NCBI GenBank assembly: GCA_050789245.1
Contig: JBOZRR010000029.1
Coordinates: forward strand, 5,556 to 69,555
Direction of reading: 5' to 3'
Source: Bryobacteraceae bacterium
Lineage (GTDB): Bacteria > Acidobacteriota > Terriglobia > Bryobacterales > Bryobacteraceae
Length of the DNA stretch: 64,000 nt
In this document: piece after piece, positions 28,923 to 37,723 of the stretch
Position numbering within the stretch: the stretch's first letter is position 1
How the letters are laid out: every line of letters starts with the position of its first letter
Notes under the pieces: model-generated
The model's database searches: none
What the model saw: the letters and a program-made list of their open reading frames with translations, nothing else
Told to the model about the DNA's origin: nothing
Position numbers and translations under genes: made by a program

Positions 28923-31574
<2,652 letters not shown>

Positions 31575-31594: not shown

Positions 31595-31620
31595 CAAGAG
31601 GCGCCTTCGGGCGCCTCTTG
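31595..31620. terminator. strong GC hairpin between convergent acnA and the 103-codon gene (bidirectional terminator candidate)
   Basis: CAAGAGGCGCC-TTCG-GGCGCCTCTTG is a perfect 11-bp stem. The flanking U-tracts are weak on both strands. Confidence 0.6.
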
Positions 31621-31624
31621 GCGT

Positions 31625-31933
31625 TTAGTCGTAGTTCCAGAACTCCGAGTCGCGCATCTCCGTGACGGAATCGTCGGGGTGCTTGTAGAAGCCGTCCAGC
31701 GCGACGGTCTGCAGACGTGGGAACCAGCAAGAGTCCAGGCAGCCCTGGACGACGACCTTCAGGCTGCCTTCCTGGCCGGGTTCGACGATGACTGAAACAG
31801 TGCCTTTGCGCTTTCCGACAGTCACAATCTCCGGACGCACATCATTCATCTCGCGGAGACGCCCCCAGGGAAGCGCCCGGAGTGCCCGCCCCCGGGCCTC
31901 CACGATCTGGCGAAATTGTTCGTAGTCCTCCAT
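31625..31933 (-). CDS. hypothetical protein, third gene of the MNT-HEPN operon
   Basis: ATG at 31933 lies 1 nt after the HEPN stop (31935-31937). Coding-like, no recognised motif. Confidence 0.55.
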   Translation of the reverse strand: MEDYEQFRQIVEARGRALRALPWGRLREMNDVRPEIVTVGKRKGTVSVIVEPGQEGSLKVVVQGCLDSCWFPRLQTVALDGFYKHPDDSVTEMRDSEFWNYD

Positions 31934-31934
31934 C

Positions 31935-32348
31935 CTATGACTCTGGCGCGGATGCAATGCGATCCTCGACTGCTCTGCAAATGCGTTGTGCGATGTCGAG
32001 CCAATCTCGCGACTCCTCCACCGAGGGTTCTTCCGGTGCGCCCGGATATCGAAAGAGTGTGGCGAAGCCCGTCAGTGCGAGGCCGGGTTCGATCACGGTT
32101 CGCAAGGATTCGTCGAGGGCAATTACCGGACGCGCGAGCTCGGTTACGTTGTGCGTGAGCGGATAGGGTTCGCCTCGGGAGACGAGGAAGGCCTTCAGTG
32201 CCTTCTCCGCAGCCTGCTGAGCGTGATAAAGGGAAATCCCCAGGATCGGAGGTTCACTCTCAATCCCGAGTTGCGCCAAACGCAGGTCCTCACGCGCAAT
32301 TCGGAGCCATTCCCTGGCTTCTTCAGGCAGCTTGCGGCTCTGCTTCAT
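31935..32348 (-). CDS. HEPN-domain protein (toxin-like partner of a minimal nucleotidyltransferase)
   Basis: REDLRLA...YHAQQAAEKALKAFL...LTHNVTEL helical HEPN pattern. Overlaps the upstream MNT gene by 26 nt. Confidence 0.8.
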   Translation of the reverse strand: MKQSRKLPEEAREWLRIAREDLRLAQLGIESEPPILGISLYHAQQAAEKALKAFLVSRGEPYPLTHNVTELARPVIALDESLRTVIEPGLALTGFATLFRYPGAPEEPSVEESRDWLDIAQRICRAVEDRIASAPES

Positions 32349-32670
32349 ACAGGAGCTTTCCTTCCCTCAAGGCGATGGCCGGAAGCGACATCAACCAGCC
32401 TGTTCGCTGCTCAAATGCAGAGCGGCGGAAACGCACAATCTCGATGGCATAAGGAATGTCCCAAAGCGCGGAATAGATCTCTCCAGCCCAAAGCGCCTCG
32501 CGCGGGGCGCTGTCCGGCAGGACGATCAGGAAATCAATGTCGCTCTGAGGCCGGGCATCACCGCGCGCGGTGGAGCCGATCAAGTAGACCCGTTCCGGGT
32601 GCAATTGCGCCACCATGATCCGTACGGCCGACTGCACGGCTTCTTCGCGAGTCATTGTCCTTCCCAACAC
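32323..32670 (-). CDS. minimal nucleotidyltransferase (MNT family)
   Basis: LIGSTARGDARPQSDIDFLIVL matches the GSxxRGx(5)SDxD signature. Confidence 0.85.
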   Translation of the reverse strand: MLGRTMTREEAVQSAVRIMVAQLHPERVYLIGSTARGDARPQSDIDFLIVLPDSAPREALWAGEIYSALWDIPYAIEIVRFRRSAFEQRTGWLMSLPAIALREGKLLYEAEPQAA

Positions 32671-32700
32671 TGTAACGCGGACGCGGCGCGCCGGGACGCG

Positions 32701-32860
32701 TTACCTCCGGTGACCTCGACTTTCCTGCGCCGGTGGGGGGGCGCGGATCTCCGTCACGATGACGTTCGGACGGCGGTATTCGCCCTCAGTGCACCGGAGA
32801 TGTCGATCCATGGTCCGGGCCGTCGCCTGTAATGCCAGTCGTCTCACGCCGAGCATTATT
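32701..32860 (-). pseudogene. decayed C-terminal remnant of a second lysyl-oxidase-like gene
   Basis: Two reading frames match the intact gene at 34068..34790. DDWHYRRRPGPWIDISGA aligns with GDWYYKQLPGQWIDITGV, and EGEYRRPNVIVTEIRAPPP aligns with EGENRYPNFIETEIHVPNP. They are separated by a frameshift and a deletion of about 25 codons, with a stop just upstream of DDW. Confidence 0.7.
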
Positions 32861-33058
32861 TGGATATGTCGCCGGTCACTTTCTGCTCCGCCGAAAGCGC
32901 GGCAACAGGCGCTCCGAGGATGATGGCGGATTTGCCATGGGCCAAGTACCGCGAGACAGATGAACATGATATCGATTGAAAATGTACACTGTTTCTGCAC
33001 GAGTTCGGGCACGGTTCCGTCATATACTGCAGCTACAGGCGAGAAAGGAGCCGTTGGC

Positions 33059-34009
33059 ATGAAGGTCGCCATTCGTCTCTTGTTGCTGATTGGTGCGGTG
33101 CTGCTGGCGCAGGCTGCCCCACGCGAGGCTTTCTATTCCCGAGCCACCAGTTTTGGAGGGCAGATCGTTCCGCTGTTCGCGAATGGCTACCTTGTCTACC
33201 TTCACCAGGAGAAGCGGCTGCAAGTGTTTCGGCCCGACACCGAACTCGCTTATGACTACGACGTGCCGTGTCCTCCGCAGACGAGCCACTGTGGACTCGA
33301 AGCTGTGGCGGTGAGTCGTGAAGGTGTCGTCGCCTTGGGGATCGGGTTCCTCACGAAGAACGGCTATGCGAGCGGCATTCGGCTTATAGATGCGAAGGGC
33401 GAGGAAATCCGCTTCATTAGTACGGGGCGATATGGCTCGCGGCAGTTGGCCTTCGACAAGCATGGCGCTATATGGTCGATCGGGTGGCAGCGAGACGAAT
33501 GGGCAAATGACAGGCAGAGCCGTGACGACTACAACATTGCGCGCAAGTACTCGCCTCAAGGCAAATTGGAGGGCGAGTTCTTGCCGAAGTCGCTGTGGAC
33601 GGCCAAGCTCGGTCCCAGTCTCGGCGGGCGTGGCTACTGGACCATGTACGCCGCGGATGACCGGATCGGCGCCATCTTCAATGAAAACATGATGGGGGCG
33701 ACGCCAGAGTGGGTAGAGTGGGATCTGAACGGCAACGTGCTCCGTCGAGTTCTCCTTCCCAAATCGTACAGTTCGCTGCCCCGCGCATTCACGCGCAATG
33801 GGACGCTCTACGCTCAGTTCCCGGCCGCGGGCGAAGGCAACGAAATGGAGTTGAAGTCGCTGGAGCCTCAGAGCGGAGAATGGATTCCCGTCCGCTCGAA
33901 CCTGCCCAGCCACTTGAAGGGATTCCTGCTCGGAGCGGACGGTGATGATCTGGTCTACCGCGAAATCCGCGACGGGATCGTCCGCCTGGTTTGGGCGAAG
34001 CCCGAATAG
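33059..34009 (+). CDS. hypothetical exported protein
   Basis: AAAGGAG RBS 8 nt before ATG 33059. Signal MKVAIRLLLLIGAVLLAQA. Beta-rich composition, no recognised motif. Confidence 0.6.
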   Translation: MKVAIRLLLLIGAVLLAQAAPREAFYSRATSFGGQIVPLFANGYLVYLHQEKRLQVFRPDTELAYDYDVPCPPQTSHCGLEAVAVSREGVVALGIGFLTKNGYASGIRLIDAKGEEIRFISTGRYGSRQLAFDKHGAIWSIGWQRDEWANDRQSRDDYNIARKYSPQGKLEGEFLPKSLWTAKLGPSLGGRGYWTMYAADDRIGAIFNENMMGATPEWVEWDLNGNVLRRVLLPKSYSSLPRAFTRNGTLYAQFPAAGEGNEMELKSLEPQSGEWIPVRSNLPSHLKGFLLGADGDDLVYREIRDGIVRLVWAKPE

Positions 34010-34067
34010 GAAAACGGCCCGCGCTTTGATGGGCGCGGGCCGTTCTGATTCGGACCTCCTGAGCAGC

Positions 34068-34790
34068 TCAGTCCTCGACCACTGCGACCTTATTGCGCGG
34101 GTTGGGGACGTGGATCTCCGTCTCGATGAAGTTCGGATACCGGTTCTCGCCCTCTTCGAAGGTGTAAGGCTCGGAGAAGTTGATCTCGGCCCGGACGATG
34201 TAGTCGCCTTCGGGGACCCCGGTGATGTCGATCCATTGGCCGGGCAGTTGCTTGTAATACCAGTCGCCCCAGCCGGACGTGATGCCCTGGTTCTCGCAGG
34301 TATAGCCGCTGCTCTTGCCGCCCCAATACTTGAACGAATCCTCAAAGCAGAAGCCGCCTTTCCAACTCTCCACCACCAATTCGCGCGTGTCCTTTTTCAG
34401 CAGTTTGTAAACCGTGAATTGCTTGATGTGATAGTGCTGGTGGCACTCGGCGAAGTAGAAGTAGTCCTTGTAAGGATTGTTCGGGTCTTCGCGGTTGCCC
34501 ACCACCAGGTCGCCGTCGCCGGCATTGAGGATCACCGTGTCGAAGCGCAGGATGCGCCGGTAGCCCGTTCCAAAGATCGAGCCCTCCAGGAACGCGCAGC
34601 CCGTCGGTTCAAAGTAGCGGTCCACGATCTCCATCTGGGAGACGAAGCGCTTTGGATCGAGCGTCAGATCCGGCTTGCCGCCGTTGTCATAGACGGGAAA
34701 ATCGCGGCCGACCGAGGTCCTTTGGGCCAGGACGGCGGGCGCGAGCGAGAGAAAAGCCGCAAGCGCGGCGACAGGTATTTTCAGGTTCAC
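34068..34790 (-). CDS. lysyl-oxidase-like copper amine oxidase (LOX catalytic domain), exported
   Basis: CHQHYH (Cu His triad), WKGGFCFED (LTQ Lys position), GDWYYKQLPGQWIDITGVPEGDYIV (LTQ Tyr position plus the conserved QWIDIT block). GGAGGA RBS and GTG start at 34790. Signal IPVAALAAFLSLAPAVLAQ. Confidence 0.85.
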   Translation of the reverse strand: MNLKIPVAALAAFLSLAPAVLAQRTSVGRDFPVYDNGGKPDLTLDPKRFVSQMEIVDRYFEPTGCAFLEGSIFGTGYRRILRFDTVILNAGDGDLVVGNREDPNNPYKDYFYFAECHQHYHIKQFTVYKLLKKDTRELVVESWKGGFCFEDSFKYWGGKSSGYTCENQGITSGWGDWYYKQLPGQWIDITGVPEGDYIVRAEINFSEPYTFEEGENRYPNFIETEIHVPNPRNKVAVVED

Positions 34791-34869
34791 AAATGGCTCC
34801 TCCAGTTGCCAATTGCGCAAGAATGGCACAGAAGCGATCGTCTCGCTATACTTTTTGGTACTTTTTCGA

Positions 34870-36123
34870 TCAATCGTTCGTGCCGGATGCCGGCTTCGCC
34901 ACCTCAGCACCGAAAACGTACGTTTCGCCGAACATGTTCGATCGAAAGATCACCATTTTGCCGTCTGGGGTGAAGCTGACGTTCGGCTCTAGTCGGTAGT
35001 TGTGCTTCGACATGTTCACGAGTCGCGTCGAGCGTAGGACGCCGGGGCGGACAAAGCTCGGCTCGGTGACGCCGCGATTCGGAAGCAGCTCCGGACGGAA
35101 CAGGTAAATCCACTGGCCGTCCTTCGCGTGAGCCACCTGGCCCGAGTCGCCGCCGTCGCCGGCCATCAGCGCGCCGTCTCGCGTCGCGTTGAAGTGGATC
35201 GACCATTCGTCGCGCTGAAGGCTGTACCAGCGGCGCTCGCCGGTCTCGACGTTGTAGGCGGCCAGCCAGAAGACCTCGCCGCGCGGCGTCTGCAAGTCGT
35301 ACCAGATGGTCTTGCCATCGGCGCTCCAGAACTCGTGGCCCCAGATCTCCATCTCCATGGTGCGCGTGTGAATTTTCGTGATTTTGCGGGACTCCACGTC
35401 GATGGTCCACAGCCGGTCCACCTTGTGCCAGGGCCCTTCGTGGCAGAACATCAGCAGATTCGGATTGGCGGGCGAGAACAGCAGGTGGTTCAGCCAGTCC
35501 GTGGCGCGGTGGATCACTTTCAGTTCGCCCGTCTTCGTGCTGATGGTGAACATGGCCATCGGCAGGCGCGCCGCCAGGCGGTCCTCCATCATCTGGCCCT
35601 TGTTGCGCGGCTGTTCGAGCGAATGGCCCTGCGAGGCGCTCTGGCGCTGATTCTGGTTGTAGTCGGCGCCGTCGCCTTCGATGTAGGTGCCTGCGAGCAG
35701 GGTTTCGTCGGCGTTGATCGTCGAGATCGAGCCGCGGCGCGGCAATTTCGCGATTTCGCGCGACGTGCCCGCGTCCATTTCGGTGCTCCAGACGGCGCCG
35801 TCTTTCGTGTAGTAGACCGTGGGACTCTTGCGGCCAACCTCGATGACGCGCACGCGTCCGTCGACGACTTTCCTCGACGCGCGCGTCGAGAGATCGAGGA
35901 GAAATACGCCGTCCGGCGTCGAGTAAATCATCCGCAGGCCGTCGGGCGTGTAGCCGTTCTGGTTGAAGTACAAACTGGCGCTGCCGGGCTCCTTCGTGAG
36001 GCGGTGCACGCGGTGGCCGGTGTCGGGGTCCACCCAGCTTTCAGGCGGCTCGGCGGCCGTTGCGAGGGCCGTCGCGGCCAGGATCAGTATCGGTACCCGC
36101 ATCCCAATTTGGCTCCAGTTCAT
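34870..36123 (-). CDS. oligogalacturonate-lyase-family beta-propeller protein, exported
   Basis: FCHEGPWHKVDRLW, HEFW and SFTPDGKMVIFRSN match conserved Ogl-family blocks. Signal MRVPILILAATALATA. An alternative ATG at 36102 has a better GGAG spacing. Confidence 0.75.
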   Translation of the reverse strand: MNWSQIGMRVPILILAATALATAAEPPESWVDPDTGHRVHRLTKEPGSASLYFNQNGYTPDGLRMIYSTPDGVFLLDLSTRASRKVVDGRVRVIEVGRKSPTVYYTKDGAVWSTEMDAGTSREIAKLPRRGSISTINADETLLAGTYIEGDGADYNQNQRQSASQGHSLEQPRNKGQMMEDRLAARLPMAMFTISTKTGELKVIHRATDWLNHLLFSPANPNLLMFCHEGPWHKVDRLWTIDVESRKITKIHTRTMEMEIWGHEFWSADGKTIWYDLQTPRGEVFWLAAYNVETGERRWYSLQRDEWSIHFNATRDGALMAGDGGDSGQVAHAKDGQWIYLFRPELLPNRGVTEPSFVRPGVLRSTRLVNMSKHNYRLEPNVSFTPDGKMVIFRSNMFGETYVFGAEVAKPASGTND

Positions 36124-36181: not shown

Positions 36182-37723
36182 ATGCCCCAGAATGGCGTTT
36201 CGCGTCGATATTTCTTTTACGGCTCCCTGCTCGCCGGCGCCGTCCCCGTTGCCGGTTTCGGCAGCACGCCCAATCTGAAGTTCATGGGCTACAAATCGCC
36301 CATGGAGAAGCTCAATATCGCAGGCATTGGCGCCGGCGGCAAGGGCTACAGCGATCTGATGGGCTGCGCGACCGAGAACATCGTCGCATTGTGCGATCCC
36401 GACGCGAAACGCGCGGGCCGCACATTCGAGCGTTTTCCCGACGCTCCGCGCTACACGGACTTCCGAAAATTGTTCGACAAAGAGGCGAAGAACATCGACG
36501 CGGTGATCGTCGCCACGCCGGACCACATGCACGGCACGATCACGATGTGGGCGATGGAGCGCGGGAAGCACGTCTACTGTCAGAAGCCGCTGACGCGCAC
36601 TGTGTGGGAGGCGCGGCAGCTTGCCGCCGCTGCGCAGAAATACGGCGTCGCAACGCAGATGGGGAACCAGGGATTCTCGAACGAAGGCACGCGGCTTTGC
36701 GCGGAGATGGTGTGGGCCGGCGAGATCGGCAACGTCACAGAAGTCCACGCGTGGACCGACCGGCCGATGTGGCCGCAGGGCGTGACGTCGATTCCGGCGC
36801 CGAGCGACGTGCCGTCGACGCTCGACTGGGAGTCGTGGCTGGGCATCGCGGACCAGCGGCCGTACACGAACGGCGGCTCGGGCTACCCGACGCAGTGGGG
36901 CAACTTCTACGAGCCGTTCAACTGGCGCGGATTCTATGACTTCGGCTGCGGCGCTCTGGGCGACATGGCGTGCCACATTCTCGGAGCGCCGCACATCGCG
37001 CTGAAGCTCGGCACGCCGTCGAGCGTCGAGTGCGTGATGAAGGAAGGCACGAGCGAGTTCATGTTCCCGAAGAAATCGGTGATCCGCTTCGACTTCCCGG
37101 CGCGCGGCTCGATGCCGGCGATGAAGCTGTTCTGGTACGACGGCCTGAAGGAGACGCCGAAGATTGCGGGCGTGCCGGAAGGCGAATTCCTGGGCGATCT
37201 GCCGTCGCGTCCGTTCCGCAGGCCGCAGGGCCAGCAAGGCCAGCAAGGCGCGCCGCAGGCTGCACCGGCGCAGATGCCGCCGCGTCCGGCGACGGGCTAC
37301 GTCGGACGGATGTTCAACTACGAGGAATTCCTGAAACTGAAGGACGATCCGAACAAGCGCGTTCCGCCGCCGGACGGGAGCCTGTTCGTCGGCGACAAGG
37401 GCATGCTGACGACTGGGACGTACGGCGAGGAGACGCGTCTGATCCCGGTGGAGAAGATGGCCGATTACAAGGCGCCGGCTCCGCTGCTGACGCGCTCGCC
37501 CGGCCACTATCGCGACTGGATCCGCGCCTGCAAGGGCGGCGAACCGTCGTGCTCGAACTTCGGCGTGGCCGCGCCGTTCGTCGAGTGGATGCTGCTGGGC
37601 GTGGTGGCGCTGCGCGTCGAAGGCAAGCTGGAGTACGACGCGGCGAAGATGGCGTTCACGAACAACAAAGAAGCCAACAAGTACCTGCGGCCGAACTTCC
37701 GCAAGGGCTGGTCGTTCATCTAA
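36182..37723 (+). CDS. Gfo/Idh/MocA-family oxidoreductase with Tat-like signal and Gln/Pro-rich insert
   Basis: VSRRYFFYGSLLAGAV leader, Rossmann IAGIGAGGKG, CQKP motif. Low-complexity RPQGQQGQQGAPQAAPAQMPP insert. Confidence 0.85.
   Translation: MPQNGVSRRYFFYGSLLAGAVPVAGFGSTPNLKFMGYKSPMEKLNIAGIGAGGKGYSDLMGCATENIVALCDPDAKRAGRTFERFPDAPRYTDFRKLFDKEAKNIDAVIVATPDHMHGTITMWAMERGKHVYCQKPLTRTVWEARQLAAAAQKYGVATQMGNQGFSNEGTRLCAEMVWAGEIGNVTEVHAWTDRPMWPQGVTSIPAPSDVPSTLDWESWLGIADQRPYTNGGSGYPTQWGNFYEPFNWRGFYDFGCGALGDMACHILGAPHIALKLGTPSSVECVMKEGTSEFMFPKKSVIRFDFPARGSMPAMKLFWYDGLKETPKIAGVPEGEFLGDLPSRPFRRPQGQQGQQGAPQAAPAQMPPRPATGYVGRMFNYEEFLKLKDDPNKRVPPPDGSLFVGDKGMLTTGTYGEETRLIPVEKMADYKAPAPLLTRSPGHYRDWIRACKGGEPSCSNFGVAAPFVEWMLLGVVALRVEGKLEYDAAKMAFTNNKEANKYLRPNFRKGWSFI

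Follow-up and report, generated by a model that had tools for sequence, protein, structure and literature searches.

A minimal single-domain lysyl oxidase-family gene with conserved copper and LTQ residues beside an aconitase gene in a Bryobacteraceae genome

Bacterial lysyl oxidases (LOX) are known, yet little biochemistry has been done on them. A 2015 survey by Grau-Bove et al. (PMC4448552) described LOX genes from prokaryotes, without listing Acidobacteria, and our literature searches returned no acidobacterial or other bacterial LOX enzymology beyond a study of the archaeal enzyme HTU-LOX (2019, PMC6452851). A gene on the minus strand of a 64,000-nt stretch of Bryobacteraceae DNA, hereafter the window, raises the question of whether such a bacterium carries a LOX catalytic domain with its copper and cofactor residues in place, and what an enzyme of this kind might do there. 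The reading that we favour, and hold with good confidence on the strength of sequence and homology, is that the gene encodes a minimal single-domain LOX catalytic domain, that its product would carry out the Cu/LTQ chemistry of the family, and that it is a stand-alone accessory gene.

Gene model, catalytic residues and predicted fold

According to the ORF list and its translation, the LOX-family gene occupies 34068..34790 on the minus strand, with 240 codons, a stop and a GTG start. The longest open reading frame at this place runs from 34068 to 34910 on the same strand; the start at GTG 34790, which gives 240 aa, was preferred because a Shine-Dalgarno sequence read from the DNA, GGAGGA (34798..34803, minus strand), lies 7 nt before it and because the closest homologues are 235-250 aa long. 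The GGAGGA is kept in the relatives at two other loci, L007 and L008. Residues 1-22 (34725..34790, minus strand; VNLKIPVAALAAFLSLAPAVLA, followed by QR) display, by inspection and not by a predictor, the n/h/c layout of a Sec-type signal peptide with an AxA-type site, cleavage being predicted between VLA and QR. Conservation across the clade to which the protein belongs (described below) starts exactly at Q23, and Q23, R24, T25, S26 and V27 are invariant. Judged by inspection only, the protein would be exported from the cytoplasm by this predicted Sec signal, which bears out the exported 240-aa protein of the preliminary description. The mature form would have about 218 residues (23-240), and the conserved domain begins within about 17 residues of the cleavage site.

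The translation matched the Pfam profile Lysyl_oxidase (PF01186) over residues 75-206 with 86.1 bits against a cut-off of 20.4 (E 3.2e-24), a match that spans model positions 49-175 of 204 only. In a phmmer search, human LOXL2 (PDB 5ZE3) was matched at E 1.2e-19, and none of the NCBIfam profiles matched the window protein. The E values of the PF01186 and PDB matches confirm that, as far as sequence goes, the assignment to the LOX family is beyond chance. The three key blocks reported earlier, namely the Cu-binding His triad, the LTQ lysine and the LTQ tyrosine with the QWIDIT block, were all found in the translation: CHQHYH at residues 116-121, WKGGFCFED at 143-151 and GDWYYKQLPGQWIDITGVPEGDYIV at 175-199. 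The preliminary description had proposed a profile search with PF01186, which gave the match far above threshold reported here, and a check on the alignment of the His triad, Lys and Tyr; in the HMMER alignments these positions were correctly registered, and the fold comparison also led to LOXL2.

The copper-binding HxHxH motif (H117, H119 and H121; 34428..34442, minus strand) was aligned to H626, H628 and H630 of LOXL2, with CHQHYH lying on CHRHYH. K144 (34359..34361, minus strand), the predicted LTQ lysine, was aligned to K653, and Y178 (34257..34259, minus strand), the predicted LTQ tyrosine and fourth metal ligand of the precursor, to Y689; both residues were invariant in all three of our alignments (A1, A2 and A3). 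In LOXL2, H626, H628 and H630 together with Y689 coordinate the metal, K653 and Y689 form the LTQ, and both copper dependence and LTQ formation between these two residues have been demonstrated (PMC5899467). From the conserved residues we infer, as the preliminary description did, that the window protein is a lysine or amine oxidase.

The AlphaFold2 model, built on a 60-sequence alignment, had a pLDDT of 89.2 and a pTM of 0.82. A Foldseek search with this model against PDB entries to April 2026 gave matches at E <= 0.001 to both chains of 5ZE3 and to no other entry (E 2.8e-13, query-normalised TM 0.64, about 200 columns, 31% identity), the remaining matches being generic beta-sandwich noise. 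The window protein is accordingly modelled with the LOX catalytic-domain fold, in a structure that is predicted and not solved. This Foldseek search returned no prokaryotic LOX structure and no LOX structure besides 5ZE3, and no LTQ-containing, active-state LOX structure was found in that copy of the PDB. In our reading of alignment A1, the Ca2+ ligand position of LOXL2 N727 is a Pro in the window protein; the Ca2+ site is retained in part (D41/L42, E213, N216 and N220) and probably contributes to holding the fold.

Compared with human LOXL2 (5ZE3) and the animal LOX and LOXL1-4 proteins, the window protein shares the Pfam family, the predicted beta-sandwich fold, the HxHxH motif, the positions of the LTQ Lys and Tyr and the QWIDIT block; with LOXL2 it also has two disulfides in common and keeps most of the PDL/E/N calcium-site residues. 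Nevertheless, identity to LOXL2 is only about 31%, SRCR domains and a long propeptide are lacking, and two of the five catalytic-domain disulfides are kept. The window protein further differs from animal LOX in being bacterial, with a predicted Sec export signal and no collagen or elastin context. HTU-LOX of Haloterrigena turkmenica, compared here by its published description and not by direct alignment, is likewise prokaryotic and single-domain, with a hydrophobic signal at the N-terminus and hyperconserved His, Lys and Tyr, but it is archaeal and carries about 50 autoinhibitory residues ahead of the domain.

Conservation, disulfides and distribution

Among 121 close homologues, the four Cys, the three His, K144 and Y178 were invariant or nearly so, and in 60 clade members from seven phyla C65, C116, H117, H119, H121, K144, C148, C165 and Y178 were all invariant. 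In 41 more diverse members, down to 32-41% identity, K144, Y178, the four Cys, D41, W174 and Q185 were still invariant, and the three His were present in at least 90% of these sequences. Across phyla, clade members remain 54-83% identical, and both the start of the mature protein and the C-terminal tail are invariant. A comparison with the 83%-identical relative at L007 gave a dN/dS of 0.12 (dS about 1), the mark of a gene kept by purifying selection and not of debris.

Two deviations were noted within the clade. The Betaproteobacteria branch (L070, L073 and L076-L078) sits on a long stem of 1.14 changes per column and has a basic tail (…VPKRRER), compared with the …HVPDPRxKV that is near-invariant in the rest of the clade. 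In the homologue of an uncultured Solibacteraceae MAG (G445, the genome of L064; contig C175:329-1018) there is one in-frame TGA within the match, which is due to an error of sequencing or assembly or else shows that the copy was broken recently.

The catalytic domain of LOXL2 contains five disulfides (PMC5899467). The window protein has four Cys only, and in the alignment C65-C116 corresponds to C573-C625 of LOXL2 and C148-C165 to C657-C673; the three other pairs are absent, so that the five-disulfide pattern of animals is not reproduced. Since the number of disulfides is known to vary among LOX proteins (Pestov et al., PMC6452851), the two-disulfide pattern is no bar to membership of the family. 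The fold should, by prediction, be held by C65-C116 and C148-C165. Trp and Gly had earlier been seen in place of animal Cys near the LTQ Tyr, and this was right: W174 is aligned to C685 and G184 to C695. The positions of the C663-C685 bond are Y155 and W174 in the window protein, and the equivalent of W174 is Trp in 127 of 141 related prokaryotic LOX domains (taken from the 150 best representative clusters); because this Trp is near-universal in prokaryotic LOX domains, the bond looks animal-specific. The positions of C579-C695 are S71 and G184. Here the equivalents were both Cys in 120 of the 141 domains, both non-Cys in 21 and mixed in none, and in the non-Cys cases position 184 was always Gly. 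Such perfect covariation of the two positions is good indirect evidence, at the level of sequence, that most relatives form a C579-C695-type bond and that the window clade lost both of its halves together.

In a scan of 1.84 billion representative proteins, the wider LOX family comprised 3,296 clusters (50% identity) at E <= 1e-3, many of them multi-domain or tandem-LOX proteins, and 80 clusters at E <= 1e-30. The window clade forms a single 50% cluster, which splits into more than 1,100 at 90% identity, mostly metagenomic. It was found at 71 loci in species-representative genomes, nearly all of them MAGs, from Acidobacteriota (the majority), Verrucomicrobiota, Candidatus Eisenbacteria, Myxococcota, Chloroflexota, Actinomycetota and Betaproteobacteria; the only carriers not labelled as MAGs are Paucibacter soli AS307 and 'Comamonadaceae bacterium 2FH'. 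Several members, from Thermoanaerobaculia or Pyrinomonadaceae MAGs, are already named 'lysyl oxidase family protein' by NCBI. The prokaryotic LOX groups of Grau-Bove et al. resemble the clade in having a LOX domain with or without a signal peptide, a patchy distribution and suspected horizontal transfer, and differ from it in that the present clade is mainly acidobacteriotal (PMC4448552).

As side observations on the wider family, long representatives with two to four LOX-domain stretches are common (P0122-P0270), and about 13% of the 141 domains, mostly in multi-domain proteins, are without at least one of the His, Lys or Tyr; domains of this kind are, judging from these substitutions, likely inactive.

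The gene itself is scattered. The window genome has one PF01186 match only; none of seven other species of the same genus carries the LOX gene, which is present in 4 of 40 relatives and in 10 of 400 other sampled genomes of the phylum. Thus the earlier view of prokaryotic homologues as sporadic stands for their patchy occurrence among genomes and falls for the family as a whole, which is very large in metagenomes. In a quick maximum-likelihood tree, rooted with distant representatives and built without animal, fungal or archaeal LOX, the window protein formed a trio with the metagenomic P0003 and P0004 at 100% support, and the trio was nested within a Pyrinomonadaceae/Blastocatellia group with an SH-aLRT of 80-90, under the threshold of 95. 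Phylum labels were clustered and not monophyletic (9 changes, against a minimum of 6). At 70% identity, the window aconitase, used here as a rough proxy for genome kinship, is closer to its homologue in a 'Candidatus Solibacter usitatus' MAG than to those from Pyrinomonadaceae and Thermoanaerobaculia MAGs (55-58%), whereas the window LOX is 67-70% identical to its counterparts from the same three sources. This contrast and the non-monophyletic phyla fit, without proving, horizontal transfer, by which the gene was probably acquired among soil Acidobacteriota and beyond; tree support is moderate and the genomes are mostly binned.

The locus and its history

An aconitase gene (28923-31574, plus strand) is followed in the window by what an earlier reading takes to be an MNT-HEPN module (about 31625-32670), by a decayed 3ʹ remnant of a second LOX copy (32717-32851, minus strand) and by a gene for an exported protein of 317-349 aa (32960-34009, plus strand), which has no Pfam match and is convergent with the LOX gene. 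Upstream of LOX lie a gene for an exported propeller of the oligogalacturonate-lyase family (Ogl-like; 34870-36123, minus strand; Pectate_lyase22, Pfam E 5e-22), with a signal-like N-terminus, and a GFO/IDH/MocA oxidoreductase gene (36182-37723, plus strand).

The remnant, located by tblastn and blastn of the gene against the window and by a three-way alignment, consists of two blocks with about 79% nucleotide identity to the intact gene; about 50 nt are deleted internally and the reading frame is broken. To the LOX gene of L007 it is only 69-74% identical; being closer to the intact gene of the window, it suggests a local duplication followed by decay. At L007, the nearest relative (LOX 83% identical, aconitase 80% at the nucleotide level), the order is the Ogl-like gene, a glyoxalase gene on the opposite strand, LOX and then directly aconitase, indicating that the adjacency of LOX and aconitase is common to both loci and that about 2.5 kb was added in the window. 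Neither the syntenic locus of L007 nor any other LOX locus examined contains the gene for the 317-349-aa protein, and that gene appears to belong to the stretch added between LOX and aconitase. The seven congeners contained nothing matching window positions 31600-34890, which cover LOX, the remnant and the accessory neighbours, and in the two congener loci inspected (G001 and G005) other genes come after aconitase.

By blastn and DNA alignment, conservation with L007 extends over the 78 nt that precede the LOX start, and since this stretch is kept despite a different upstream gene, it hints at a promoter belonging to LOX itself. Within the 79-nt spacer, a 16-nt block, AAGTACCAAAAAGTAT (34848..34863, minus strand), recurs unchanged in L007 and L008, both with another gene upstream, and may be a promoter or operator element belonging to LOX. 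A consensus scan found no terminator-like site in this spacer after the Ogl-like gene, which makes it possible that LOX is co-transcribed by read-through from that gene. On the other side, a GC-rich hairpin read from the sequence (GGCCCGCGC ... GCGCGGGCC; 34016-34041) lies between the convergent stops; with GTTTTC next to it on the LOX strand it looks like a terminator, one that the consensus terminator scan did not list.

When the ORFs of 72 loci were clustered, no operon partner was found to be conserved across phyla or with the window. Considering that no neighbour is shared across phyla and that the upstream 78 nt are conserved, the window LOX is best read as a stand-alone accessory gene, probably with its own promoter, in a variable region by aconitase.

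Ties to the two flanking genes for exported proteins were considered and dropped. The Ogl-like gene was matched in six of the seven congeners, each time on a different contig from aconitase, and the glyoxalase gene intervenes in L007, leaving a functional tie to the propeller unsupported; a tie to the 317-349-aa exported protein was rejected because it has no Pfam match and was not found near LOX elsewhere. A separate arrangement was observed in 17 Acidobacteriota loci (L022-L054; Pyrinomonadaceae where classified), in which the LOX strand carries, 15-100 nt upstream of LOX, a gene for an exported protein of 127-138 aa, possibly a lineage-specific partner of LOX in those loci. An MFS transporter gene is convergent downstream of LOX in the same 17 loci; this arrangement is absent from the window.

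Proposed chemistry, possible roles and meaning

Cofactor formation and enzyme activity we infer by homology to the animal enzymes. After export, H117, H119, H121 and Y178 would bind Cu(II); copper and O2 would oxidise Y178, to which K144 would add, forming lysine tyrosylquinone (LTQ) autocatalytically; and the mature enzyme would turn primary amines, whether free or as lysine side chains in peptides, into aldehydes, giving off NH3 and H2O2. The genomic context, in the window and at the 72 loci, gave no clue to the substrate. HTU-LOX refolds with Cu2+ into a BAPN-sensitive amine oxidase of relaxed specificity that acts on lysine polymers, glycine, taurine, aminoglycosides and polymyxin, and its native role has been called cryptic (PMC6452851). 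By analogy, our best guess for the window protein is that it oxidises a broad range of amines or exposed lysines, either in the periplasm or extracellularly, and so serves to acquire nitrogen or to detoxify; we favour such a role because HTU-LOX, the one prokaryotic LOX for which we found published assays, behaves in this way.

The protein could instead be a protein-lysine oxidase dedicated to one macromolecule. A secreted or envelope protein of the bacterium, from the matrix, an S-layer or a sheath, would then be its target for cross-linking, in the way that collagen and elastin are for animal LOX. Peptidyl lysine is the substrate of the animal family (PMC5899467), and an identity of 54-83% across phyla is unusually high and suggests a constrained substrate interface. 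However, no lysine-rich or repeat protein adjoins the window gene, the convergent 317-349-aa neighbour lacks such a composition and has no counterpart at the L007 locus, the 72 loci share no partner gene, and bacterial collagen-like proteins were judged unlikely targets by Grau-Bove et al. (PMC4448552). Taken together, we regard dedicated cross-linking as unlikely. A further thought is that the enzyme might serve antagonism, generating H2O2 from environmental amines or lysine against competitors. Quinone-dependent lysine oxidases of marine bacteria, which are unrelated to LOX, offer an analogy. H2O2 is indeed released in the family reaction (PMC6452851), and the gene is accessory, patchy and horizontally mobile in soil bacteria, as competition factors often are. 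Such a function nevertheless seems very improbable, given that neither the window nor the 72 loci hold a linked immunity, catalase or regulator gene and that high conservation with a low dN/dS is a misfit for an arms-race gene.

That the window protein might be a catalytically dead LOX-fold protein, for instance one that only binds copper or serves as a structural element, could be argued from the related domains without His, Lys or Tyr (about 13%), which indicate that inactive LOX-fold domains exist, and from H. turkmenica cells, in which no LOX activity was detectable (PMC6452851). Yet every catalytic residue is invariant in the window protein and in the 60 clade members, which would be unexpected if catalysis were dispensable, and we give this idea hardly any credence.

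The identification of the window gene is correct but ordinary: it adds one more member to a described and NCBI-annotated family. To the preliminary description it should be added that the family is already in the literature (PMC4448552, PMC6452851) and in NCBI annotation. The phylum range of the clade, the evidence for joint loss of a third disulfide and the history of the locus with its decayed second copy are small additions of the present analysis. In the whole family, only human LOXL2 (5ZE3) has a solved structure, and this shows a zinc-bound precursor that lacks LTQ. With a mature protein of 218 residues, two predicted disulfides and at least one named cultured strain (Paucibacter soli) among its carriers, the clade is a convenient object for studies of LTQ biogenesis and of the role of LOX in soil. 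It is a slim prospect that the clade has one specific conserved substrate or partner in soil bacteria and that its small size also makes it a tractable route to structure; were this true, the clade could finally yield an LTQ-containing, active-state LOX structure.
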